DNA from: Fidelibacterota bacterium
GTDB lineage: Bacteria > Fidelibacterota > Marinisomatia > SCGC-AAA003-L08 > GCA-2689995
NCBI GenBank assembly: GCA_014381925.1
Contig: JACNKR010000063.1
Location: 68,867 to 132,866, forward strand
Reading direction: 5' to 3'
DNA: 64,000 nt
Shown: in pieces, positions 3,600-58,155 of the stretch
How positions within the stretch are numbered: the stretch's first letter is position 1
Layout of the letters: every line of letters starts with the position of its first letter
Position numbers and translations under genes: made by a program
The notes under the pieces: generated by a model
Databases searched by the model: none
The model's input: the letters and a program-made list of their open reading frames with translations, nothing else
What the model was told of the DNA's origin: nothing

Positions 3600-3677
3600 G
3601 GTGGCTGTAGTTCAGCTGGTTAGAGCACCGGATTGTGATTCCGGTTGTCGTGGGTTCGAATCCCATCAGCCACCCCA
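3600..3677 (+). tRNA. tRNA-His (anticodon GTG), with encoded G-1 and 3' CCA
   Basis: I folded the cloverleaf by hand. The acceptor is GUGGCUG/CAGCCAC with an extra G-1 pairing C73. The D stem is GUUC/GAGC, the anticodon stem CCGGA/UCCGG with loop UUGUGAU, and the T arm GUGGG-UUCGAAU-CCCAU. CCA is encoded. Confidence 0.95.
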
Positions 3678-6988: not shown

Positions 6989-7771
6989 ATGTTTTCATTT
7001 GAACATTTTATAACACTCGGATTTCTAATTCTATTACAAGCTGTTTTAGGATTTGATAATTTACTATATATTTCATTAGAGTCTAAACGAGCTCCTGCCT
7101 CTGAACAGGCAAAAGTTAGAAAGTTAGGAATTGGAATTGCTGTTATTTTACGGATCGTGCTCCTTTTTGTTTTAACTCAAATAATTGGATATTTTCAAAA
7201 TCCTTTATTTGGAATAAATATTGGACATATTATTAGTTGTGAATTTAACCTGCATAGTTTAATTGTATTGTTTGGTGGCGGGTTTATACTCTATACTGCC
7301 ATAAAAGAAATTTTCCACATGTTATTGTTAGATGAAAATGAAACAGCTGAGGGTGGCGGATCTTCAGCAAATAAAATTATTTTATTAATTGTGGCAATGA
7401 ACCTTGTTTTTTCTTTTGATTCAATTTTAAGTGCAATGGCATTAACGGATAACTTTTGGATTATGGCAATAGCAATAATTATCAGCGGAATATTAATGAT
7501 TCAACTTGCAGAAACCGTTTCTTCTTTTCTTCAAAAAAACAGAATATTTGAAGTTCTTGGGCTATTTGTATTATTTATTGTTGGGATAATGTTACTTACT
7601 GAAGGTGGTCACATGGCACATCTCCATTTATTTGGACACGAAATTACCGCAATGAGTAAAGCAACTTTTTATTTTGTAATTTCCATCTTGGTTTTAACAG
7701 ATTTAGTTCAAACAAAATATCAAAAAAATCTACTAAAACAAAAACAGCTTCGAGAAAAAGGGGGAATTTAA
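6989..7771 (+). CDS. TerC-family integral membrane protein
   Basis: 260 aa and multi-TM. The motifs LGFDNLLYISL and FSFDSILSA are TerC-like repeated DN/DS motifs. Confidence 0.7.
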   Translation: MFSFEHFITLGFLILLQAVLGFDNLLYISLESKRAPASEQAKVRKLGIGIAVILRIVLLFVLTQIIGYFQNPLFGINIGHIISCEFNLHSLIVLFGGGFILYTAIKEIFHMLLLDENETAEGGGSSANKIILLIVAMNLVFSFDSILSAMALTDNFWIMAIAIIISGILMIQLAETVSSFLQKNRIFEVLGLFVLFIVGIMLLTEGGHMAHLHLFGHEITAMSKATFYFVISILVLTDLVQTKYQKNLLKQKQLREKGGI

Positions 7772-8202
7772 TGAGTGTATATTATAAACCAAATGGCTAT
7801 CATGATGTCAGTTCATATATTGTTGTAAAAAATGCAAATGATACAATTAAATTTGCAGAAAATGTGTTTAATGCTATTATTGTTGAAAAAATGGAAGATA
7901 ATGGTGAAATTATGCACGCTGAATTCCAAATTGGCGATACGATCATAATGATTGGTAACGGTAAAAACGGTAGTAAGCTGTTTCCTGCAATGCTATATGT
8001 ATATGTTGAAAATGTAGATAAAACATATAAAAAAGCAATGGACTCAGGTGCAATTTCAATTATGGAACCTCAAAATCAGTTTTATGGAGATAGAAATGCG
8101 GCAGTTGAAGATTCTTGCGGTAATCAATGGTGGATTGCCACACACCGTGAAAATTTATCATCAAAAGAATTAGAAGAACGATTAGAGAAGATTATTCACT
8201 AA
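7771..8202 (+). CDS. VOC/glyoxalase-family protein (PhnB-like)
   Basis: 143 aa. The C-terminal FYGDRNAAVEDSCGNQWWIATH is typical of PhnB-like VOC proteins. Confidence 0.7.
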   Translation: MSVYYKPNGYHDVSSYIVVKNANDTIKFAENVFNAIIVEKMEDNGEIMHAEFQIGDTIIMIGNGKNGSKLFPAMLYVYVENVDKTYKKAMDSGAISIMEPQNQFYGDRNAAVEDSCGNQWWIATHRENLSSKELEERLEKIIH

Positions 8203-8209
8203 AGTTTTT

Positions 8210-9025
8210 ATGTTAATAAAAACTATTTTAAAATCTATTTCATATCGGGTTGATTCTCAAAAACCCACTGAAGAGTTTCCTTTTAATTTACCTATTTTGA
8301 AAAACCTAAAAACCATTGAATTAAATTCACCTGTTACATTTTTAGTGGGAGAAAATGGGTCTGGGAAATCAACATTTATAGAAGCTTTGGCATGTACTAT
8401 CGGTTCAATTGTTGTTGGGAGTGATGCCATACAAAATGATAAAACCTTAAACGATGTTCGTAAGTTATCAGAATGCTTTTATTTATCTTGGTCAAAAAAA
8501 ACAAAAAATGGATTTTTTCTACGTGCAGAAGATTTTTTTGGCTACACAAAAAAACTCTCTTTATTAAAAGCACAAATTAAAGAAGATATTGTTACTGTAG
8601 ATAAAAAATATAAAAACCGGTCTGAATACGCAAAAGGTTTGGCTAAAATGCCACATGCAAATGAGTTAAATGCAATAGAAAATAGTTATGAGCGAGGTCT
8701 TGAAACCTATTCTCATGGAGAAAGTTTTTTAGAATTATTTCAATCTCGAATAAAGCCGAAAGGGTTATATTTATTAGATGAACCTGAAGCACCTCTTTCT
8801 CCTTTTAGACAGCTTGGATTTCTTTCATTATTAAAAAAAATGGTTTCAAAGGGTTCACAATTTATTATTGCAACTCATTCTCCAATTATTATGGCATTTC
8901 CTAATGCTGAAATTTTAACTTTTGATACACCTCCAATTCAAAGGGTAAAATATAATGAATTAGAACATGTTGCTTTAACTAAATCTTTTTTACAAAACCC
9001 TGAAGTATATTTGGAAAAACTATAA
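8210..9025 (+). CDS. AAA/ABC-like ATPase
   Basis: It has Walker A GENGSGKST, Walker B LLDEPEAPLSP and ATHSP motifs. Confidence 0.7.
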   Translation: MLIKTILKSISYRVDSQKPTEEFPFNLPILKNLKTIELNSPVTFLVGENGSGKSTFIEALACTIGSIVVGSDAIQNDKTLNDVRKLSECFYLSWSKKTKNGFFLRAEDFFGYTKKLSLLKAQIKEDIVTVDKKYKNRSEYAKGLAKMPHANELNAIENSYERGLETYSHGESFLELFQSRIKPKGLYLLDEPEAPLSPFRQLGFLSLLKKMVSKGSQFIIATHSPIIMAFPNAEILTFDTPPIQRVKYNELEHVALTKSFLQNPEVYLEKL

Positions 9026-9815: not shown

Positions 9816-10517
9816 CTATTTTCGTTTTCCAAATAAAATGGTTCCAAGTCGAATATGGGTTGCTCCATTTTCAATTGCTAGTTCAAAGTCTCCACTCATT
9901 CCCATTGATAATTCTTTACAGTTCGGGTTAACTTGATTTTTAATATTATCTCTTATTTGGCGGGTTTTATTAAAAATATTATTCAGCTTTGTGGGGCTAC
10001 AATTTAAGGGGGGGATTGTCATTATACCTATTAAATTAAGGTGATTCATTTGTGAAATTTGGCTTGCAATATTAATTACTTCATCAACAGGAAATCCATA
10101 TTTTGCAATATCATTTCCAGTGTTCACTTGAATATAAATATTTGAAACTATATTTAGGTCATGAGAAATTGAATTTATTCGTTTTGCAAGTTTTAATGAA
10201 TCTACCGTTTCAATAACATCTACATATTTTAATACTTTTCTAACTTTATTAGATTGTAAATGTCCAATAAAGTGGATTTCGGAATTTTGTCTATTTTGAA
10301 TTTGAGGAACTTTTAATTCAACTTCTTGAACTTTATTTTCACCAATACAAGTAATGCTCGCATTTAAAGCTGATTCAACTGCTTTAATACCAAATGTTTT
10401 AGTAACAGCAATTATTTGTACATCCTCAATTGATCTGCCTGATTTTTTACATGCAGACTTAATTTGATTTTTTACTTCAGAAAATGCTCCCTGGTTAATT
10501 ACACCAGGGGTTTTCAA
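9816..10517 (-). CDS. yggS: YggS-family pyridoxal-phosphate homeostasis protein
   Basis: 233 aa with an alanine-racemase N-terminal-like fold. It has AVTKT and HFIGHLQSNK motifs. Confidence 0.85.
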   Translation of the reverse strand: MKTPGVINQGAFSEVKNQIKSACKKSGRSIEDVQIIAVTKTFGIKAVESALNASITCIGENKVQEVELKVPQIQNRQNSEIHFIGHLQSNKVRKVLKYVDVIETVDSLKLAKRINSISHDLNIVSNIYIQVNTGNDIAKYGFPVDEVINIASQISQMNHLNLIGIMTIPPLNCSPTKLNNIFNKTRQIRDNIKNQVNPNCKELSMGMSGDFELAIENGATHIRLGTILFGKRK

Positions 10518-10520
10518 TTA

Positions 10521-12983
10521 TTACTCGCCTTCTTCCTCTGAATCATCATCGCTTTCCATTACTCTTGTAATTGAAGAAATTTTCGCACCATCATCAAGTT
10601 TTAACAGCCGAACCCCTTGTGTATTTCTACCAATTGTTCTAATTGCTTTTACAGGCTGGCGAATCATAATACCGCTGTCAGTTATAATCATTAAATCATC
10701 ATTATCTACAACTTCAATCATTGATACCATTTTACCAACCTTGTCTGTTGTTTTTAAAGTAATGATTCCTTTTCCTCCTCTATTTTGAACACGGTATTCA
10801 ATTACATTTGTTCGTTTGCCAAGCCCTTTATCTGATGCTACTAATATTGTTCCCTCTCTTTTAATAACAATCATACCAATCACCCAGTCATCATCAGATC
10901 TAAGCGTAATGCCCTTAACTCCCATGGTTTTTCTTCCCATCGGCCTAGCATCATTTTCATTAAACCGGATTGATTTTCCATGGCGAGTTCCTAAAATAAT
11001 ATCATGTTCACCATTGGTAATTTTGGCTTCAATTAGTTCATCGCCTTCTCGAATTTCAATTGCATAAATACCACCTTTTCGCGGGCGGCTATATTGACTA
11101 AGAGCTGTTCTTTTTACAATGCCTTTCTTCGTTGCCATTGCTACAAAGTCGGTATCATTAAATTCTTTAACTGATACAAATGCTTTAATTCGTTCTCCAG
11201 GGTCACATCCGATTAAGTTCACAGCGGCTCGCCCTCTTGCGGTTCTTCCCCCTGTTGGTATATCATATACTTTTAACCAATAACACTTTCCTTGGTCTGT
11301 AAAGAATAAAATATAGCTATGAGTTGAAGCTATAAATAAATGTTCTACAAAATCATCATCTTTTGCGCCAGCACCACGCATACCTCGTCCACCACGACGC
11401 TGTCTTTTCCAATTAGAAGAAGGTAGTCGTTTAATAAACCCGTTATGAGTAATTGTTACCACCATATCTTCATCTGCAATCATGTCTTCAACAGAAAGCT
11501 CTCCCGTTCCTTCAATTATTTGTGTTAATCTGTCATCTCCATATTGTTTTTCAACTTCAGCAAATTCTTCTTTAATTATTTCATATTGTAGGTTTTTACT
11601 TGCTAAAATAGAATTTAATTTTTCGATTAACTTTAATAACTCTTTATATTCTTCAATAATTTTATCAACCTCCAAAGAAGTTAACCGTTGTAAACGCATT
11701 TCCAATATCGCCTTTGATTGTTTTTCAGATAAAGAAAAACGAGCCATTAATGCTTCTCGAGCAACAACAGGATCTTTTGATTTTTTAATTATTTTAATTA
11801 CTTCGTCTATATTTTCTAAAGCAATTTTTAATCCCTCTAATATATGTGCTCTTATTTCTGCTTCATTTAATTCAAATTGAGTTCTTTTAACAACGACTTC
11901 AATTCTAAAGTTTAAAAAATGGTTTAGAACTTCCTTTATATTCATTACTTTAGGAATACCATTTACAAGTGCAAGCATAATGACACCATAAGAATCTTGA
12001 AGCTGTGTTAATTTAAATAAATTATTTAAAACAACATCTGCAATTGCATCTCTCTTACATTCAACAACGATTCTCATTCCATCTTTATCAGATTCATCTC
12101 GGAGATCTGATATACCCTCAAGCCGCTTGTCTCTAACGAGATCTGCTATTTTTTCTATTAGGTTTGCTTTGTTAACTTGATACGGCAATTCATTAATAAT
12201 TATTCGCTCTCGGCTATTTGTACCAAATTCCTCAATAATTGCTCTACCACGAACAACCAACCGGCCTCGGCCTTTTTTATAAGCGTTATGAACTCCGTCA
12301 GTACCCAATAAAATACCGCCAGTTGGAAAGTCTGGACCTGTAATATGATTAGCGATAATCTCATCAATTGATATGTCTGGGTTTTCAATAATTGCATTTA
12401 AGCCAGAAAGTAATTCTCTAAGGTTATGAGGGGGGATTTTAGTTGCCATTCCCACAGCAATACCATCGGCACCATTCATTAATAAAGTTGGTAGAATAGA
12501 GGGTAATACGGTTGGTTCTTGAAGTGAGTCATCAAAGTTAGACGCCCACGAGACAGTATCTTTATCAATATCTCGTAACATCTCTGAAGAGACTCTTGCC
12601 ATTCTCGCTTCAGTATATCTCATCGCGGCCGCAGAATCACCATCTATAGAACCAAAATTCCCCTGTCCATCCATTAATGGATATCGTAAAGACCATGGTT
12701 GTGCCATTCTAACCAGTGCATCATAAACAGAGCTATCGCCATGAGGGTGATATTTACCTAAAACCTCTCCGACAATTCTCGCACATTTTTTATATTTTCT
12801 ATTCCAAGACGCACCCAGGTCTGCAGTTCCAAATAATACTCTACGATGTACAGGTTTTAACCCATCTCTCACATCTGGAAGAGCTCGAGAAACAATAACT
12901 GACATTGAATAGTTAAGATATGATTCATTCATTTCCTCAACAATGTCACGGTCCTGGGTATTTCCTCCAACTATATCTAACAT
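10521..12983 (-). CDS. gyrA: DNA gyrase subunit A
   Basis: 820 aa. It has [10 protein letters not shown], the AAAMRYTE active-site Tyr motif, C-terminal beta-pinwheel repeats and an acidic tail. Confidence 0.98.
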
Positions 12984-12998
12984 ACTAATTCCTTATTC

Positions 12999-15232
<2,234 letters not shown>

Positions 15233-49972: not shown

Positions 49973-50310
49973 TCAATTGCTTTTCGGATTAATATTCCTG
50001 TTAATCCAGAAACACCACCTATAATTATGGGTAAAATTAATATAATAATTGCTAGCATGAATGAATTATTTACATTCATCATTGTTGCAACTCTAGCCAT
50101 TAAAATTTCTCCACCAATTATCCATCTATAAAATAAAATAATTGCCCATGTAATTGTTAATGTGGAGCTTCCTATCTGAATAGCAGATATATTACTTTCC
50201 GCCATTGCCCCGATTATTACACAATAAATTACACCAGCCCACCATGGTAAAAAATATAATACAGGAAATAATATTAAAACAAAAACAGACATTTTTTTAA
50301 TGTAATTCAT
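49969..50310 (-). CDS. hypothetical small multi-TM membrane protein
   Basis: 113 aa with 3-4 TM. Its ATG overlaps the acylase TGA stop (ATGA). Confidence 0.4.
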   Translation of the reverse strand: MNYIKKMSVFVLILFPVLYFLPWWAGVIYCVIIGAMAESNISAIQIGSSTLTITWAIILFYRWIIGGEILMARVATMMNVNNSFMLAIIILILPIIIGGVSGLTGILIRKAID

Positions 50311-52757
50311 GAATTTTCTCCATTAATAATGATAACTTTTCCATTAATATCTTCAGGGTTTGAACTTGAATTAATATCTCTTAGTTCTCCAGCTCTCCAT
50401 TCTTCAAGCATATTATCATAATATTTACTTCCAGGATATCCAGATTGACCTCCAGGTAAAATCCCTTTTGCTTTTGGAGGTGAGGACATTTCAACAATAT
50501 ATCTCCACGAAGGACCAAAATGTTTTCGAGTTGCATTTGGAATTAATTTTCCACCACCTGTTGATAAATTTTCGACACCAAATCCTGGAATTTTAGCAAG
50601 ATGTAAAATATCTGTTCCTCTATAATTCCCCCAGAACCATAATTCAGATAATTGACCCACTTCTTGAGTTAACAAATTAATTGTATTTTCAAAACTTTTA
50701 TATACTAAGTCAGAAAAAAGTTCTTTTTTATTTGTATTAATGTTGTCAATCCATTTAGAATTTTGTTCTTTTGTAATTAACCGTTCCAATCGTGCATAGT
50801 CTGGCCAAAGAATTTCATCATATGATTTTCCTAGTTCATCTTCCCAAACAAGATTTTCAAATTGATCAATCCATTCATTATATATTGTTGGTGCAATTTT
50901 ATCAGCATCAAAGAAATAATTCCACTTAATTAACTCAGCAACAGGTTGAATAAAATGTGGTTTTAATAATGTATCATTTAAAACAGACAGAAAAACAGGA
51001 AGTACTCTTTCTGCCATTAAATTTTTATTATCCGTTTGAATTTCTATAAAATCATCAAATGTTGCATTTTTTAATGATGTTAAGTGTTGATTAATTCGCT
51101 CTCCTCTAAATGATTCTACAAACCATGGTCCTAAATAATATGGATAGTTTTCATCCGTTATATGTTGATTTGCAGAACTTACAAATCCTCTTTTAGGGTT
51201 TTTTATATGTGCCTTTTCATTATGCGGAATTGCATCATTCCAATTATATTGAGGATTTGTTCCATCCATCACAAAGCGTCCTTGGTTTTTCCATTTTTGT
51301 GGTGTATTTCCGGCATGCCAAATTGCAATATTTCCATCAATGTCTGCATATACAAAATTTTGAACGGGGCATGTAAAATATTGAAGTGCATCGACATAAT
51401 CTTGATAATTTTTTGCCTTATTTAATTCATAAAATGTTTTACTTTCTGCACTTGAATCATGAGCTAACCATCTCAATGCTCTTCCAACGGACAACATTTC
51501 TCCGCTTTGATTTCGTTCATTGTGCATTCTTTTTGTTTGGCCTTCATGCGTCCAAACAACAGGGCCAAAATGAGTATAAATTACAGTATCAATGAAGCTT
51601 TTTTCACCTCTAATTTTTATCTCTTCAATTTTCTTTTCTGTTGTTAGCCATTCATTATCATAAAAATATTGATTCATTTTATTTGATTTAAATACAATAT
51701 CATACCAATCCCAAACATCATCACCACCATTTGTTTCGCCCCAAGCAATATAATCATTAAATCCACTAATAACACATGGTCCTCCAGGGAGAGAGGCACC
51801 ATAAACATTAAACTCAGGGGTATTTAAATGAATTTGATACCAAATATTTGGTAATGTTAGACCTAAATGTGGGTCATTTGACAAAAGAGGAAACCCTGAT
51901 TTTGTTTTTGATCCGTCAACAGCCCAATTATTACTTCCAATTCGTGCATCCGGCTGTATCAAAACCTTATCTTGATATGGGTTTGCACGATAAAGTGAAT
52001 CAGGAAATGGTATTGATTTAATAGGTTTTGCAAATGGAGTCTCTTTAGGAATAATTGGATCTAAATAATTAGGAAACTCTGGATACAAATCGTTTAAATC
52101 TTCCATACCAATTTTATCCCATAATTTATTAAAATCAAGGTCTGAAGATCTACCACTTAAACTAAATGCCATTGTTTTAAGAAATAATAAAGTCTTTAAG
52201 GGTGTCCATTTTTCAGGTTTATAATCTAATATTTTATATTCAATTGGATATTGATCCCAATTTAAAGAATTAATATAAGCATTAACTCCGTCAGCATAAG
52301 CCTCTATACCACTATATACATTTTTATGTTTCATTGTTTCTATTAGGCCTTTTTCAGCAGAATAGACCATTCCTATTCGTCGTTGGTATTGATCAAAAGG
52401 TAATGCCTTTGGGCCAATAATTTCTGAAATTCTTCCACCTGCGGCCATTGTTTGAAACTCCATTTGCCAAAGCCTATCAAAAGCAGTGATATATCCCTGT
52501 GTAAAACATAAATCATAATCATTTTTTGCAAAAATATGGGGCACATGATTTTCGTCAATTATTAATTTGACTTCATTCTGAATTTCATCAAAGTTTAATA
52601 TATTTTTATTATGAATATCTGAATTGACAAGGGATAAAAAACCATGAAATGGATCTAAAAACGTTGCTAATGGGGGGATATTTCCCATTTTATTATTAAG
52701 TAAAATTGTTATTCCGATAAGAAAAAAAATGCTAATAATTGCTTTAATATATTTCAT
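50307..52757 (-). CDS. S45 penicillin-amidase-family Ntn-hydrolase acylase (penicillin/AHL acylase-like)
   Basis: 816 aa with a signal anchor, HVPHIFA and a GSNNWAV nucleophile-Ser motif. Its ATG overlaps the ccmD stop (ATGA). Confidence 0.8.
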   Translation of the reverse strand: MKYIKAIISIFFLIGITILLNNKMGNIPPLATFLDPFHGFLSLVNSDIHNKNILNFDEIQNEVKLIIDENHVPHIFAKNDYDLCFTQGYITAFDRLWQMEFQTMAAGGRISEIIGPKALPFDQYQRRIGMVYSAEKGLIETMKHKNVYSGIEAYADGVNAYINSLNWDQYPIEYKILDYKPEKWTPLKTLLFLKTMAFSLSGRSSDLDFNKLWDKIGMEDLNDLYPEFPNYLDPIIPKETPFAKPIKSIPFPDSLYRANPYQDKVLIQPDARIGSNNWAVDGSKTKSGFPLLSNDPHLGLTLPNIWYQIHLNTPEFNVYGASLPGGPCVISGFNDYIAWGETNGGDDVWDWYDIVFKSNKMNQYFYDNEWLTTEKKIEEIKIRGEKSFIDTVIYTHFGPVVWTHEGQTKRMHNERNQSGEMLSVGRALRWLAHDSSAESKTFYELNKAKNYQDYVDALQYFTCPVQNFVYADIDGNIAIWHAGNTPQKWKNQGRFVMDGTNPQYNWNDAIPHNEKAHIKNPKRGFVSSANQHITDENYPYYLGPWFVESFRGERINQHLTSLKNATFDDFIEIQTDNKNLMAERVLPVFLSVLNDTLLKPHFIQPVAELIKWNYFFDADKIAPTIYNEWIDQFENLVWEDELGKSYDEILWPDYARLERLITKEQNSKWIDNINTNKKELFSDLVYKSFENTINLLTQEVGQLSELWFWGNYRGTDILHLAKIPGFGVENLSTGGGKLIPNATRKHFGPSWRYIVEMSSPPKAKGILPGGQSGYPGSKYYDNMLEEWRAGELRDINSSSNPEDINGKVIIINGENS

Positions 52758-52843
52758 TTAATCTTTCTATTTTGAATAAATAAATATGATAAAATTACAA
52801 GCCATACAATAATTACAACAGCATAAAACCATTCTTTAAACAT
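52754..52843 (-). CDS. ccmD: heme exporter protein CcmD (29 aa)
   Basis: Not in the ORF track. My hand translation gives MFKEWFYAVVIIVWLVILSYLFIQNRKIK, a single TM. Its ATG overlaps the ccmC stop and its TGA overlaps the acylase ATG. Confidence 0.6.
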   Translation of the reverse strand: MFKEWFYAVVIIVWLVILSYLFIQNRKIK

Positions 52844-53504
52844 TTGTATTCCTTAATTTTTTTTCTATGAAAATTCTATACTTAGCGAGGTTTATTAGAA
52901 TTAAACTAAAATTAACCAGTGAAAATAAAAATAAATTTTGAATAAGTTGAGATGATTCAGAAACTGTATCTCTCCCTGGGTGTGCTTGTGCTTCTGGTGA
53001 CCACATATCTACTGCAAAATAAATAATTGGAACATCAACAAATGCAAGAATACTAATAATTGCACCAAGTCTTGCCCCTTGCTCCGTTGTTCCTGAAAAT
53101 TCACGAACCATAAAATAAATAATATATGTTAAAAAAATTAATAAAGTTGTTGTTAATCGAGGCTCCCAAGTCCACGGTTTACCCCATATTGGAGTTGCCC
53201 ATATTGGCCCTGTTATTAATACCAATAGACAAAATATTGTACCAATTTCAGCCCAAACCATTGCAACAACATCAGAATAATCATCTCTATTTATTAAATA
53301 TTTTACACTATAAATCATCGCAATTAAATAGGCAATGAAGAAATTCCATGCAAGTGGTACATGATAATAAAATATTTTTTGAGCCCATTCTTGATCTGGA
53401 ACTAATGGCGATTTTGCAATAATAAGCCATAAATTAACAATTGTGAATAAAATTGTTATAATGGTTAAAACTAAATTTGATTTGACTTTAATAAAATCGT
53501 TCAA
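52836..53504 (-). CDS. ccmC: heme exporter protein CcmC
   Basis: 222 aa with the tryptophan-rich motif WGKPWTWEPR. Confidence 0.9.
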   Translation of the reverse strand: MNDFIKVKSNLVLTIITILFTIVNLWLIIAKSPLVPDQEWAQKIFYYHVPLAWNFFIAYLIAMIYSVKYLINRDDYSDVVAMVWAEIGTIFCLLVLITGPIWATPIWGKPWTWEPRLTTTLLIFLTYIIYFMVREFSGTTEQGARLGAIISILAFVDVPIIYFAVDMWSPEAQAHPGRDTVSESSQLIQNLFLFSLVNFSLILINLAKYRIFIEKKLRNTNV

Positions 53505-54173
53505 TTATTCCTCCATAATATAATCAAATAAAAACATTCCTAATACGGTAAACCCTACGGCGAAAGATAAAATTAACATACACCAAAAACTATATAATTC
53601 AAATTTTATTCCCCTTGATATTGCAGATGTAGATTTAACAGCAGAAATTAATACAGGAGATGCGAGTGGAAAAAATAATAAGGCAGTTAATACATCTCCC
53701 ATTTTTGACCTAAACCCCAAGCCTGAAATAACAACCCCTAACGCTGACATCCCCCAATTTACTAATAATGACAATGCCCATAATTGCCAGTTAGTAATTG
53801 CAGTAAAACCTAAAAATAGATAAAATAATGGAAATAAACATAGTTGAGAAATAAATAAATAAATTGTGAAAACAACAGTTTTCGATAAAAAAATATAACC
53901 CCTATCAATTGGAGAGGTTAATAATAGACTAATGCCCATGCCATCTTTTTCTCTTGTAAAGTTCCAACTAAGGCCAATAATAAAGGTAAACATAAATGTT
54001 AGCCAAATTAATCCTGGCAAAATTGAATTTACATTTGGTGTGGACATATCAAATGCAAAAGAAAATATTAAAATAATTGATAATCCGAAAACAGCCATCG
54101 ACAATATAGAATCTTTATTTCGTAATTCTTGATTTAATTCTTTTATAATTAAAGTTGATAATGGAGAAGCCAA
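53505..54173 (-). CDS. ccmB: heme exporter permease CcmB
   Basis: 222 aa and 6 TM, placed between ccmA and ccmC. Confidence 0.8.
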   Translation of the reverse strand: MASPLSTLIIKELNQELRNKDSILSMAVFGLSIILIFSFAFDMSTPNVNSILPGLIWLTFMFTFIIGLSWNFTREKDGMGISLLLTSPIDRGYIFLSKTVVFTIYLFISQLCLFPLFYLFLGFTAITNWQLWALSLLVNWGMSALGVVISGLGFRSKMGDVLTALLFFPLASPVLISAVKSTSAISRGIKFELYSFWCMLILSFAVGFTVLGMFLFDYIMEE

Positions 54174-54174
54174 G

Positions 54175-54816
54175 TTAGTGTACTATCTCCAAGGTTCCAT
54201 TTTTTAATTTATATATTGATTGACAGTGTTGTTGTATAAAATGGATGTTATGAGATGAAATTATTAATGATTTCTCATTTTTTTTAAAACTATTAATTGA
54301 TTCATTCAATAAGCCTAATCCCGATTCATCAAGTGCGTTTGTGGGTTCATCAATTATTGCAAGTGACCATGATGATAATTTTAATCTTGCAATATGAAAT
54401 CGTTGAATCATTCCTGCACTAAATTCACCTAATAATTGGTTTTTTGATTGGGTTAATCCAACTAATTCTAATATTGAATAAATTTGTTCTTCAGATTTTA
54501 TATCATTTCTTAATTGAAGAAAAAGAGAAATATTTTCAAATACAGTCATGTAGGGATAAGAATCTGACTGATGCCCCCAATAACAAATATCTTTTCGATA
54601 ATTATAGTCTGACCCGAAAATAGATAAATTATTTAATAAACCACGACCAGAATCAGGTCGCATCAATCCAGAAATAATTTTGAGTAATGTTGTTTTACCT
54701 GACCCATTTTCACCAATAATTCCAATTGACTCATTAGATTGAATTGTTAAATTAAGGTTTTTTAAAACAGGGTTACGATTAAAGGATTTACAAATTTGTT
54801 GAATGGAAAATTCCAT
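54175..54816 (-). CDS. ccmA: heme exporter ATP-binding protein CcmA
   Basis: 213 aa with Walker A GENGSGKTT, signature FSAGM and Walker B AIIDEP. Confidence 0.85.
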   Translation of the reverse strand: MEFSIQQICKSFNRNPVLKNLNLTIQSNESIGIIGENGSGKTTLLKIISGLMRPDSGRGLLNNLSIFGSDYNYRKDICYWGHQSDSYPYMTVFENISLFLQLRNDIKSEEQIYSILELVGLTQSKNQLLGEFSAGMIQRFHIARLKLSSWSLAIIDEPTNALDESGLGLLNESINSFKKNEKSLIISSHNIHFIQQHCQSIYKLKNGTLEIVH

Positions 54817-54823
54817 TTAGAAA

Positions 54824-55258
54824 TTAAATACCTGTCCCACATTGAGAGCAAAATTTATCTAAATCTTTTAATTCAGTTTTACATTTTGAACATTCTCTTT
54901 TTAATAAATTAACACCACAATTACTACAAAATTTACTATTTGGGTCATTTTCATGATTACATTTTTTACAGGTTAATAAATCATCTTGTTTTTGTGGTGT
55001 AGATTTTTCCATTAACTTTGATGCTTCTAGTTTTAGCTCATCTCTTGTTCTCTTAAAATCTTCATCAACAGTAATCCCCATTTCATGTTCAAATTCAATT
55101 TCTCTAATTTGTCTAAACAAGGTTTTTAATTGTCTGTTTTTTGAAGATTCTTTTTGATTCTTATCAGAATCAATTTGATGTTTATTATCAGAAAAAAGAG
55201 GAGAAACCGTAAAATAAATAGTGCCAATAAAAATAAGGAATAAAAGTATAGATAACAT
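54824..55258 (-). CDS. CcmI-like N-terminal module fused to a C-terminal double zinc ribbon
   Basis: 144 aa: an N-terminal TM, a charged helical region LFRQIREIEFEHEMGITVDEDFKRTRDEL resembling the CcmI N-domain, then CKKC-x10-CSNC and CSKC-x10-CSQC. Confidence 0.45.
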   Translation of the reverse strand: MLSILLFLIFIGTIYFTVSPLFSDNKHQIDSDKNQKESSKNRQLKTLFRQIREIEFEHEMGITVDEDFKRTRDELKLEASKLMEKSTPQKQDDLLTCKKCNHENDPNSKFCSNCGVNLLKRECSKCKTELKDLDKFCSQCGTGI

Positions 55259-55776
55259 TAGAATCCCATCTTTTTCATTTCATCATCTACTTTTTCAAAT
55301 GATATGTTTTTTTTATTTTGATTAATTTCTTTTGGTAGTGCTCTAAATCTATTTATAATAATAATACCCATTAATATGCTTAAAAATAAAATAAAAGTTG
55401 GTAGCTTCCAAGCAACCCAGCCCAGGCCTTTATTTTCAGGTAAAGCTCTTATTTTCTCACCTTCTATGCCAACAAAAAAATTAATAATTTCCTCATCAGT
55501 CATATTTTGTTTAATAAATTTATTTGAATAATCTAATACATTTTTATTATAAACTTGAAGCAGGGTATTATTTATTTTATTTTTATCAAATTCATCAGAA
55601 ATAATATTTTTAATTATTAATTTTATACCATTAGCAATTGGTGAATCATGTTCAGCAATAACCCCACCCCAACAACAGGGTGCATGGAGTTGCTGCTCTA
55701 GCTGATATTGTCTTTGTGATTTAAATTCAACACAAAAAAGAGAAGCAATTAAAAATAAATAAATAAATTTATTCAT
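55258..55776 (-). CDS. CcmH/NrfF-like cytochrome c biogenesis protein with APCC in place of the CPxC motif
   Basis: Use ATG 55776 (MNKFIYLFLIASLF signal), not the track start 55803; this gives an 8-nt overlap with the ccmF stop. LHAPCCWGGVIAEHDSPIA aligns with the CcmH LRCPxCxxxSIADSNAPIA. A C-terminal TM is present. Confidence 0.55.
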   Translation of the reverse strand: MNKFIYLFLIASLFCVEFKSQRQYQLEQQLHAPCCWGGVIAEHDSPIANGIKLIIKNIISDEFDKNKINNTLLQVYNKNVLDYSNKFIKQNMTDEEIINFFVGIEGEKIRALPENKGLGWVAWKLPTFILFLSILMGIIIINRFRALPKEINQNKKNISFEKVDDEMKKMGF

Positions 55777-57742
55777 CCAATTTCCTATTTGGCAATAATG
55801 CAATTAAAGTTCCAAAGATTAAAACCAATGTTCCAAGCCATACCCAAGAAACTAAATTATTTAATCTAATTTTTAATGTTGCCATTCCTGTTTTTAAATC
55901 TAAACTACCTAAAATAATATAAATATCTTTATTCAATGTAGTTTTTAATGCAACTTCAGAGTGGGGTTGACTATTTTGATCAATATAAATTCGTCGTTCA
56001 GGTTTTAAATTTGTATAAAATGCACCGTTTTTATAAATATCAATTGATGTAATTTCCGCCTTATGATTTTGTCGTTTTTTCGGGTGTGAGTTTGGAGACT
56101 CTTGCCAGTATTCTTTTAATTCAAAGGAATATTCTGCAAGTTCAACTGTATTGTTTTCGGGTGAAAGTGAAACATCGGCCTCTTGGTCAAATGCTTTTCC
56201 TGTGAAACCTAAAAACATCATTAGAATACCAATATGAACAATATATCCACCATATCTTGATCTATTTTTATCCATAATTGTAATAAAAACATTAAAGATG
56301 TTTTCGCCAGATGATTTCAATCGAGCTTTAGTTCCTCTATAAAACTCCAATAGAATAGTTGATAATACAAAACCAATTAAAATTATTGTAATCAATGGAT
56401 ATACTTTTCTAATTCCAAGTGAAAATGTAATTATACCCGTAATAAAACTAAGAACTATTGGTAATGAAAAATTTCTTTTTATGCTATTTATTGATGTTTT
56501 ACGCCATGCTAACAATGGAGCAATACCAGTTAATGCTAATAAGACCAGACCAAATGGTATCAATTTTTGGTTAAACCAAGTTGGTCCTAACCTTATTTGA
56601 ACCCCTCTTAATGCTTCTGTCATAACAGGATAAAGTGTTCCCCAAAGCACAACAAGCATCATGGCAACAAATATCATATTATTAAAAACAAATCCTGCTT
56701 CTCTGCTTGCAAATGAATCAAGTTGATTTTGTGAATTCAAATCTTTATGTCTGTAAATTAATAATCCAATATTTAGCGACACTAAAAACATAACAAACCC
56801 AAAAAACCAAATACTTAAATCTGTAGCAGCAAATGCGTGGATTGAAGATACTATTCCACTTCTTGTTAAATAAGTTCCAAAAATTGTGAGTGTAAATGTT
56901 AGCATTATTAATATCATATTCCACCGAACTAACATATTCTTTTTTTCTTGTATAATAACAGAATGAATATATGCTGTACCAGTTAACCAAGGGAATAATG
57001 ATGCATTTTCTACAGGGTCCCAAGCCCAATAACCACCCCAGCCTAACTCCATATATGCCCACTTGCCACCCATAACAACAGCAATACTTAGCAACATCCA
57101 TGTAAATAACGACCATCTTCTTGTAAGTCTTATCCACGATGCATCTAATTGTTGCGTTGCCATTGCAGCAATAGCATAGGCATATGGAATTGTAAAGCCA
57201 ATGAACCCTAAATATAGCATTGGGGGATGAAGCAACATTGCCCAGTGTTGCAATAATGGATTAAGTCCTGACCCCATTTTTATTGGTCCATCTACAGGTG
57301 CAAATGGGTTTTCAAACGCAAGACATATAAATAGGAAAAAACTCATGACAATAGCAATCACAATTGTAACCCACGGCATTAAGGAAACATATTTGTTTCT
57401 ATTTTGGTATAAAACGATGATAGCAAAAATTGATAATATAAACACCCAAAAAAGCAATGAGCCTTCCATACCAGCCCAAAAGCCACTTATTTTATATATG
57501 GTTGGTGTAAAAACACTACTATATTTATTTACATAGGTTAAAGATAAATCACTATTATAAAGAGCATATACAAGTGTACCGCCTGCCGAAAATGTAAGCA
57601 AACAAGCAGAAATCATTGCATTCCTACCCGCAACATATACACGAGAATCTTTAGATTTTAAATACCATAAGTTTAGTCCTAAGCTCGTGATTGTTAACAA
57701 AAAGGCGAGTGAAATTAAAGAAGATCCGAAAATAGATATCAT
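55769..57742 (-). CDS. ccmF: cytochrome c heme lyase subunit CcmF
   Basis: 657 aa, multi-TM, with the WGGYWAWDPVEN motif. Confidence 0.93.
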   Translation of the reverse strand: MISIFGSSLISLAFLLTITSLGLNLWYLKSKDSRVYVAGRNAMISACLLTFSAGGTLVYALYNSDLSLTYVNKYSSVFTPTIYKISGFWAGMEGSLLFWVFILSIFAIIVLYQNRNKYVSLMPWVTIVIAIVMSFFLFICLAFENPFAPVDGPIKMGSGLNPLLQHWAMLLHPPMLYLGFIGFTIPYAYAIAAMATQQLDASWIRLTRRWSLFTWMLLSIAVVMGGKWAYMELGWGGYWAWDPVENASLFPWLTGTAYIHSVIIQEKKNMLVRWNMILIMLTFTLTIFGTYLTRSGIVSSIHAFAATDLSIWFFGFVMFLVSLNIGLLIYRHKDLNSQNQLDSFASREAGFVFNNMIFVAMMLVVLWGTLYPVMTEALRGVQIRLGPTWFNQKLIPFGLVLLALTGIAPLLAWRKTSINSIKRNFSLPIVLSFITGIITFSLGIRKVYPLITIILIGFVLSTILLEFYRGTKARLKSSGENIFNVFITIMDKNRSRYGGYIVHIGILMMFLGFTGKAFDQEADVSLSPENNTVELAEYSFELKEYWQESPNSHPKKRQNHKAEITSIDIYKNGAFYTNLKPERRIYIDQNSQPHSEVALKTTLNKDIYIILGSLDLKTGMATLKIRLNNLVSWVWLGTLVLIFGTLIALLPNRKLDE

Positions 57743-58155
57743 ATTGTTTGACTACTTTTAGACTCATAATTAGATTCTTCTTCATATCGAGATGCACATT
57801 TTGTCATTAAATTATCAGCTACAAACACACCATTTTTATAGACACCTTCCACAATAACTTGCGTACCATCTTTAAATAAATCAGGAACTGCTGCAGAGTG
57901 GTGTTTTACTGATAAGGTTGCTTCCCCCTGTTTTAATTCAAAAAATAAATCAAGCTTATCTTCTGAATATTTTATTGAACCATCTAACACATTTCCTCCA
58001 AGCCTGAATTTTTCTTGAGTATAGGATTCATGGTGTTCAATTAAATCAGAAACTGAAATAAATGGTACCTCTTCGGTCTCAAACCCAATAACCATCCAAC
58101 CAAACCCAATTAATGAAAGTGCTAAAATTGCGATAATAAATTTTGCTTTTGGCAT
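57739..58155 (-). CDS. ccmE: heme chaperone CcmE, CxxxY variant
   Basis: 138 aa with an N-terminal anchor and an OB-fold region. The C-terminal LMTKCASRY stands in place of the canonical LAKHDENY. Confidence 0.85.
   Translation of the reverse strand: MPKAKFIIAILALSLIGFGWMVIGFETEEVPFISVSDLIEHHESYTQEKFRLGGNVLDGSIKYSEDKLDLFFELKQGEATLSVKHHSAAVPDLFKDGTQVIVEGVYKNGVFVADNLMTKCASRYEEESNYESKSSQTI

Follow-up and report, generated by a model that had tools for sequence, protein, structure and literature searches.

The DNA analysed here, a stretch of 64,000 nucleotides from a Fidelibacterota bacterium (contig JACNKR010000063.1, positions 68,867 to 132,866; the window), carries a cytochrome c maturation (System I) operon in which the gene immediately downstream of ccmF specifies a protein that resembles CcmH but lacks the canonical L-R-C-x-x-C of that family. 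The open reading frame (ORF; 55258..55776, minus strand) encodes 172 residues containing LHAPCCWGGVIAEHDSPIANGIK. Its motif reads L-H-A-P-C-C, with Ala in place of the first Cys, the second retained and a further Cys directly before it. A start at an upstream in-frame TTG (55803) is unsupported, all homologues beginning MNKF. The locus raises the question of whether such a protein is a genuine CcmH, whether its adjacent cysteines are a local oddity or something more general, and how they relate to the Cys-type CcmE heme chaperone encoded in the same operon.

The first part of the question has a plain answer: the protein is a true member of the CcmH family. The first-pass annotation, made from the sequence of the window, had called it CcmH/NrfF-like, and a profile hidden Markov model (HMM) check bears this out, with a match to Pfam PF03918 (CcmH) of 45.4 bits against a gathering score of 25 (E = 6.2e-12). 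The match falls in two stretches, one in each half of the protein, of which residues 87-149 correspond to CcmH profile positions 64-126. Nearly all relatives carry a precomputed PF03918 assignment and, by its genomic position, the gene is encoded with ccmF as is usual for the family. The only NCBIfam match is to NrfF (TIGR03147), at 23.2 bits over residues 19-79, and no NCBIfam equivalog is matched. Identity with NrfF, the CcmH paralogue serving the CXXCK heme of NrfA, was rejected on that score, the cutoff being 159.2, and on the lack of nrfA, nrfE or nrfG neighbours; NrfF also has a canonical CxxC motif, unlike the window protein. The further suggestion that a divergent homologue had been overlooked does not stand, since NCBI already names the identical protein 'cytochrome c-type biogenesis protein CcmH [Candidatus Marinimicrobia bacterium]' and JGI labels its relatives CcmH/NrfF. 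The assignment to CcmH is thus already in automatic annotation, as CcmH in Cys-type systems is already in the literature of 2011.

A profile of the window clade aligns to the solved structures of CcmH from Escherichia coli (2KW0, E = 0.011) and Pseudomonas aeruginosa (2HL7, E = 0.047), with 'lhaPccwGGviaehdsp' standing over LRCPKCQNNSIADSNSM of the E. coli protein. From this alignment A32 corresponds to the first Cys of the canonical motif, P33 to its Pro, C34 to an x position and C35 to the second Cys. The substitution is therefore exactly that originally described: Cys1 has become Ala32, and Cys34 precedes the retained Cys35 (TGT TGT at 55677..55672). An AlphaFold2 model built on 113 sequences (pLDDT 93.4) has helices at residues 21-28, 46-59, 65-75, 79-87 and 94-105, the motif loop at 29-45 and a transmembrane helix at 118-145, in other words the three-helix bundle of CcmH (21-28, 46-59 and 94-105) with two helices inserted, its active-site loop between helices 1 and 2 and a C-terminal anchor. 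The two best PDB matches of the model in Foldseek are the CcmH structures 2HL7 (probability 0.89, TM-score 0.56 normalised to target) and 2KW0. The features of the protein are these.

55729..55776, minus strand: hydrophobic N-terminal signal or anchor, approximately residues 1-16, helical at 2-14 in the AlphaFold2 model and probably a signal peptide
55672..55677, minus strand: vicinal cysteines C34-C35, encoded TGT TGT, with C35 the canonical second Cys and C34 at an 'x' position
55648..55650, minus strand: codon CAT of His43, a residue that is His in 116/121 CC-class representatives (see below) and near-invariant in alignment A2
55507..55599, minus strand: clade-specific insertion of about 30 residues between CcmH helices 2 and 3, contributing two extra helices (alignment A3; AlphaFold2 helices 65-75 and 79-87)
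55342..55425, minus strand: C-terminal transmembrane helix, residues 118-145 of the AlphaFold2 model, followed by a basic tail

The adjacent cysteines extend far beyond this protein. When 1.84 billion representative proteins were searched exhaustively by HMM, 518 matches were obtained at E<=1e-3, and cysteine arrangements were classed in the best 149 representatives, one per 50%-identity cluster; the ranking favours the query's own class and the counts are not family-wide frequencies. A C-C pair is found in 121 of the 149. Canonical C-x-x-C is seen in 12, with Ser at position 43 in 11 of them, while five have a five-cysteine C-x-C-x-C...C...C motif, three have C-P-C, and three have S-P-x-C-P...C with an extra Cys at position 43; one is unclassified and four are fragments. 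Of the 121 CC representatives, 114 have Ala at position 32, 116 have Pro at position 33, 116 have His at position 43 and 109 have Ser at position 45, so that C34, C35, H43 and S45 are near-invariant across clusters sharing only some 20-40% overall identity. Closer to the window, 17 relatives with identities as low as 46% share A32, P33, C34, C35, W36, H43, D44 and S45 without exception. The conservation of the pair among homologues, on which the first-pass annotation had made its proposal depend, is thereby upheld. The pattern [AS]-P-C-C-[WFYG]-x6-H-x-S in the loop between helices 1 and 2, matched by residues 32-45 of the window protein, describes what we term the APCC subfamily.

This distribution could in principle conceal repeated origins of the motif. 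When the motif was masked, the window protein nevertheless scored 66 bits against an HMM of distant APCC proteins, the five-Cys and canonical classes giving 33 and 26 bits respectively. Since the remainder of the protein scores best on the APCC-class HMM, the motif is inherited, and a convergent origin in the window clade is ruled out. A pseudogene or degenerate remnant is likewise ruled out, given conservation over more than 100 clusters and a gene translationally coupled within its operon. The APCC site is the mark of a large CcmH subfamily and not a one-off oddity. The subfamily is apparently undescribed: in the open-access papers searched, no description was found of vicinal or alternative cysteine motifs, or motif classes, in CcmH.

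The operon itself is compact, occupying 52754-58155 on the minus strand, and its genes are as follows in the order of transcription.

57739..58155, minus strand: ccmE, Cys-type heme chaperone (Pfam CcmE, 86.8 bits; MTKCASRYEE, i.e. CxxxY, from the translation)
55769..57742, minus strand: ccmF, heme lyase subunit with WWD motif GWGGYWAWDPVEN (Pfam Cytochrom_C_asm, 123.9 bits; CcmF_C, 185.2 bits)
55258..55776, minus strand: ccmH, APCC-type, 172 residues (Pfam CcmH, 45.4 bits; alignment to 2KW0/2HL7; AlphaFold2 model)
54824..55258, minus strand: ORF of 144 residues with a transmembrane helix, an 'EIEFEHEMG...DF' segment and a double zinc ribbon (Pfam DZR, Zn_Ribbon_1)
54175..54816, minus strand: ccmA, ATP-binding cassette (ABC) ATPase (Pfam ABC_tran)
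53505..54173, minus strand: ccmB (Pfam CcmB, 74.5 bits)
52836..53504, minus strand: ccmC (Pfam Cytochrom_C_asm, 89.4 bits)
52754..52843, minus strand: candidate minimal CcmD, a 29-residue single-transmembrane ORF, MFKEWFYAVVIIVWLVILSYLFIQNRKIK (position and hydrophobicity only)

The ccmH ATG overlaps the ccmF stop by 8 nt (ATGAATAA) and the ccmH stop overlaps the next ATG, these overlaps coupling ccmH translationally to ccmF and to the downstream gene. The order ccmE-F-H-DZR-A-B-C recurs in loci L001, L002 and L212, down to 48% identity. The last is a TARA relative, 48% identical, with the full synteny of the window, and all three encode the CxxxY form of CcmE that is found in the window and characterises the variant known as System I*. 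The CxxxY CcmE, the order ccmE-ccmF-...-ccmABC and the lack of ccmG in the operon are all shared with System I*. That system, in Desulfovibrio and archaea, was reportedly first defined (by Allen and colleagues in 2006) as being without CcmH, whereas the window operon has a CcmH-family gene between ccmF and ccmA. The first-pass annotation, too, had noted that the variant system was reported as CcmH-less, a view that had already been superseded: Stevens et al. (2011, PMC3601427) put CcmH in about a third of the bacteria that have a Cys-type CcmE, so that absence of CcmH is not characteristic of System I*. Archaea lack CcmD/H/I (Gupta et al. 2022, PMC9084895).

The relationship between CcmE and CcmH types was assessed more broadly in metagenome contigs scanned for the CcmF WWD motif W-G-G-x-W-x-W-D-P-V-E-N. 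This gave 120 unselected loci (L087-L206), in each of which CcmE and any CcmH were typed by HMM alignment. The 28 loci with His-type CcmE and a CcmH all have the canonical C-x-x-C...S form, with neither five-Cys nor APCC examples; the 13 with Cys-type CcmE and a CcmH all have the five-Cys form, with neither canonical nor APCC examples. No crossover is therefore seen in 41 informative operons (Fisher's exact p = 5.7e-11, relatedness between loci being ignored). A further 15 Cys-type loci have no visible CcmH, of which 12 lie on contigs that stop at ccmF or no more than about 450 bp beyond it. The genuinely CcmH-less loci are L097, L127 and L175 alone, which leaves a CcmH in 13 of 16 informative loci, and the Cys-type system is thus usually not CcmH-less.

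The five-Cys motif of these Cys-type (CxxxY/F) operons can be written C-x-C-x-C-x7-C-x5-C. No description of the class was found in the open-access papers searched and we know of no published name for it. In four loci (L099, L130, L207 and L211) the five-Cys CcmH is fused to the C-terminus of CcmF. The Vicinamibacterales operons L207 and L208, for example, read ccmE(AKCPSKY)-ccmF::ccmH fusion ('IICMCGTCGRKRIGECTC')-Zn-ribbon protein-x-ccmABC, and that of Neobacillus muris (L209) reads ccmE(TRCPSKY)-ccmF-ccmH('FRCTCGCGQDHYECDPNTC')-x-x-ccmABC-Redoxin, with ccmH at 10463-10966. The five-Cys proteins share family and slot with the window protein, lying between ccmF and a CcmI_N-like gene, and are its second-best class (33 bits) in the motif-masked comparison. 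They differ in their five cysteines, where the window protein has two, and in having Cys rather than His at position 43. They are also common, whereas an APCC protein filling the in-operon slot is rare and confined to the clade of the window: five-Cys CcmH is the typical partner of Cys-type CcmE. A suggestion of co-adapted thiol chemistry in CcmE and CcmH, made in the first-pass annotation, is consequently supported only in its general form. The two classes do co-vary (28:0 against 0:13) but the usual Cys-type partner is five-Cys, not APCC, and the co-variation could stem from inheritance of whole operons rather than from chemical co-adaptation.

What, then, does the APCC loop do? We rate at slightly better than an even chance the possibility that the window protein serves a Cys-type (System I*) operon as the CcmH subunit of its CcmF/H heme-ligation complex, employing C35 as nucleophile and the adjacent C34 as its partner; it would associate physically with CcmF. 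Canonical CcmH has its N-terminal Cys buried and its C-terminal Cys exposed, the latter being the proposed nucleophile that forms a mixed disulfide with apocytochrome; the redox motif of the P. aeruginosa protein is LRCPKC (PMC3884852). In an AlphaFold model the CcmH CXXC lies near the WWD/P-His site of CcmF (PMC10663686). The window protein would similarly be a periplasmic helical-bundle domain held at the membrane through its C-terminal helix, its loop keeping the exposed nucleophile (C35) while the buried partner, lost at A32, would be replaced by the adjacent C34. C35 would attack or capture a cysteine of the apocytochrome CXXCH to give a mixed disulfide. C34 might then resolve it through a vicinal disulfide in an eight-membered ring, or a thioredoxin-like partner might re-reduce the pair. 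His43, in place of the canonical Ser, probably lies beside C35 and could tune its reactivity.

The sister classes fit such a scheme. Relative to the retained Cys, the partner is at i-3 in the canonical motif, i-2 in C-P-C (as in L213), i-1 in APCC and i+8, i.e. position 43, in S-P-x-C-P...C, as if a second thiol were required but movable. The fact that the i+8 position can hold the partner also suggests that residue 43 is near Cys35. Canonical CcmH has Ser there, the five-Cys and S-P-x-C-P...C classes have Cys, and both APCC and C-P-C classes have a near-invariant His. Redox-active vicinal Cys-Cys centres do exist elsewhere, such as the C-terminal SCCS of Drosophila thioredoxin reductase, where adjacent cysteines cycle between dithiol and eight-membered-ring disulfide and pass reducing equivalents to a protein disulfide; this is an analogy, since fold and context are unrelated to those of the CcmH variant.

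A number of observations count against this proposal, among them the genomic distribution of the subfamily. One genome per GTDB species was scanned with the pattern L[MIH]APCCW[GS][GSQ], which derives from 14 sequences and is biased towards APCCW[GS][GSQ]. The resulting 80 loci come from Marinimicrobia/Fidelibacterota, KSB1, Calditrichaceae, Acidobacteriota (Vicinamibacterales, Terriglobia), Bdellovibrionota and others. Just two, L001 and L002, both closely related to the window, carry the gene within a ccm operon; at the other 78 there is no ccmE, ccmF or ccmC within 8 kb. Three further APCC loci that were looked up are likewise orphans, and one Acidobacteriota metagenome-assembled genome (MAG), JBGQNR01, has three APCC-type paralogues (L042, L048 and L056). 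From the predominance of loci with no ccm neighbour, the mixed contexts and the triple paralogues, dedication to CcmF may not extend to the whole subfamily. Vicinal disulfides are strained and rare, and in the HMM alignment the five-Cys class has Gly at the canonical Cys2 column, so that Cys2 is not demonstrably universal. The 64-kb window contains no thioredoxin-like CcmG/CcdA gene and no CXXCH ORF (nor any CXXCK ORF), and the E-values of the two Foldseek matches (0.39 and 0.62) are not significant alone. CcmH is missing from three of the 16 informative Cys-type operons and from L210, and Desulfovibrio System I* is functional in E. coli without any CcmH (PMC3601427). With System I* able to work in this way, and with some Cys-type operons being CcmH-less, the thiol chemistry of CcmH may be dispensable in System I*.

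The same distribution bears on the suggested co-occurrence of APCC-type CcmH with CxxxY CcmE. All four in-operon cases (the window, L001, L002 and L212) do have a CxxxY CcmE, but most APCC genes adjoin no ccm gene, for which reason a specific APCC/CxxxY co-adaptation is not established. It might instead be that the link between CcmE and CcmH types is phylogenetic hitch-hiking, System I and System I* being ancient, separate lineages moved as blocks and APCC being unrelated to Cys-type CcmE chemistry. We give this a substantial probability, somewhat short of evens. The architecture E-F-H-CcmI_N-like-x-A-B-C indeed travels together in Marinimicrobia, Acidobacteriota and Firmicutes, whole-system horizontal transfers have been inferred (PMC9084895), and APCC genes are mostly outside ccm operons. 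Set against this are the absence of any crossover among the 41 informative operons and the presence in the System I* slot of at least three non-canonical cysteine arrangements (five-Cys, C-P-C and APCC), never the canonical one. Such variety without the canonical motif hints, weakly and with relatedness uncorrected, at functional constraint.

The orphans lend themselves to a quite different interpretation, in which Cys34, Cys35 and His43 are not a redox couple but a ligand site for heme iron or a metal such as Cu(I), the protein being a periplasmic cofactor chaperone or holdase that this clade has drafted into its ccm operon. Two near-invariant Cys and a His make a typical ligand set for soft metals or heme, most APCC members are unlinked to ccmF, and orphans adjoin genes for PCuAC (L020, L027), Haem_bd PF14376 (L014) and an HbpS-like protein (L085). 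These suggestive neighbourhoods are few (4 of approximately 85 loci) and inconsistent, however, with most orphans lying among housekeeping genes; the scaffold belongs to a known thiol-disulfide protein and retains the nucleophilic Cys, and the window-clade gene sits exactly in the CcmH slot. We consider a ligand site improbable. Also doubtful in our estimation is the idea that C35 alone matters, through single-Cys capture or stereo-control, C34 forming a permanent structural vicinal disulfide or being non-catalytic, and the protein serving mainly as the apocytochrome-docking subunit of CcmF. Thio-reduction by CcmH is debated, the preferred scheme being a non-linear one with CcmG resolving the mixed disulfide between CcmH and apocytochrome (PMC3884852), System I* can function without CcmH, and the best-conserved part across classes is not the Cys loop but the C-terminal half (GEKIRALP...W..P plus the transmembrane helix). 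Yet C34 is as invariant as C35 over the 121 diverse representatives, and a second nearby Cys is always kept in the sister classes, at i-3, i-2 or i+8, which argues for selection on the pair. A more far-reaching possibility, which we regard as unlikely, is that the Cys-Cys-His site is a distinct catalytic or ligand centre that evolved along with five-Cys CcmH for Cys-type CcmE chemistry, for instance in breaking or avoiding the heme-CcmE thioether or in heme handover. On that view the many orphans of Acidobacteriota, Marinimicrobia, KSB1 and Bdellovibrionota would make up a new family of periplasmic proteins, anchored in the membrane, that handle redox or cofactors beyond CcmF.

For the C34-C35 thiol pair that we favour, the closest comparison remains canonical CcmH (Ccl2/CycL; 2KW0, 2HL7; PF03918). 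The window protein shares with it the Pfam family, a predicted periplasmic helical bundle with the active-site loop between helices 1 and 2, the C-terminal transmembrane anchor, the 'YGE.v...P...g...W..P' region, the place immediately downstream of ccmF, and the motif Pro and second, exposed Cys. It departs from it in having Ala for the buried first Cys, a new Cys adjacent to the second, His for the conserved Ser eight residues on and the 30-residue, two-helix insertion. Canonical CcmH also accompanies His-type CcmE, and the window CcmH the Cys-type.

The role of CcmH, whether in thiol reduction, apocytochrome docking or stereo-control, is a disputed point of System I cytochrome c maturation, and the natural variants offer a ready set of experiments: the buried Cys gone and the exposed one kept, its partner moved to i-1, i-2 or i+8, and His or Cys where the neighbouring Ser was. 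They show too that the Cys-type system usually carries a CcmH, with a cysteine chemistry never mixed with the canonical one in 41 operons. Should that coupling prove functional, it sets limits on models for the release of heme from CcmE and for the presentation of CXXCH thiols at CcmF. There is also a consequence for annotation of the abundant uncultured Marinimicrobia of the sea and Acidobacteriota of soil, in which an orphan 'CcmH' call is not evidence of a canonical system.

Most orphan APCC genes lie between housekeeping genes, the arrangement topA-[APCC gene]-glyS being found in most Marinimicrobia. Some neighbours are of a different kind. In KSB1-type MAGs a PCuAC copper chaperone gene is upstream of the orphan in L020 (7450-7986) and L027 (7291-7845), and a PF14376 Haem_bd gene is downstream in L014 (8537-9037); an HbpS-like protein is encoded next to the orphan in L085 and a Redoxin downstream of that in L036. 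There is a hint here that some orphan APCC proteins may serve other periplasmic cofactor pathways, for which NrfF, as a paralogue of CcmH, provides a possible analogy. A Calditrichaceae MAG (L072) has a five-Cys CcmH and an APCC CcmH in tandem (7196-7714 and 7953-8468), away from any ccmF. The C-terminal 70 or so residues of the pair are almost identical while their N-terminal halves differ, which suggests recent partial duplication or gene conversion. In Vicinamibacterales both in-operon five-Cys CcmH and orphan APCC genes occur, as seen at the level of the order only; among loci limited to +-10 kb, no MAG accession prefix is shared between orphan APCC loci and those with Cys-type CcmE. A relative with the C-P-C arrangement, L213 ('INCPCNKGILYDHDS', of 'NCPCNKG..YDHDS' type), has its gene between ccmF and ccmA.

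The gene that follows ccmH in the window (54824-55258) encodes a 144-residue protein with an N-terminal transmembrane helix, the segment 'LFRQIREIEFEHEMGITVDEDF' and a C-terminal double zinc ribbon. It matches the NCBIfam CcmI N-terminal domain at E = 1.3e-3, below the cutoff, and the motif ELEF..MG....DF occupies the same slot both in L207 of Vicinamibacterales (12942-13601), whose protein has a Zn ribbon, and in L209 of Neobacillus muris (10979-11353), whose protein lacks it. On these resemblances, the protein looks like a conserved, unnamed component of System I* that replaces CcmI and is similar to its N-terminus. The Zn-ribbon gene is kept even in L210 (6220-8213), an Acidobacteria-like Cys-type operon with ccmF split in two (378 + 294 residues) and no CcmH domain, hence a truly CcmH-less bacterial System I*. 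At the other end of the operon, the 29-residue ORF (52754-52843) shares 8 nt with the end of ccmC, stop codon included, and 4 nt with the beginning of the gene that follows. L207 and L209 likewise have small ORFs after ccmC, of 90 and 52 residues in the former and 43 in the latter.

Some Bacillaceae, namely Cytobacillus sp. (P0230) and Neobacillus muris (L209), have a complete Cys-type System I operon (ccmE-F-H-x-x-A-B-C-Redoxin); in Firmicutes it is System II that is generally taken to be the norm. The Cytobacillus CcmH has yet another motif, 'HPPGCTDSMTADYC'. In the window, a penicillin-amidase gene (50307-52757) lies directly after the operon and is syntenic in L212. The window has a G+C content of 30.7% and a single tRNA, at 3601-3674.

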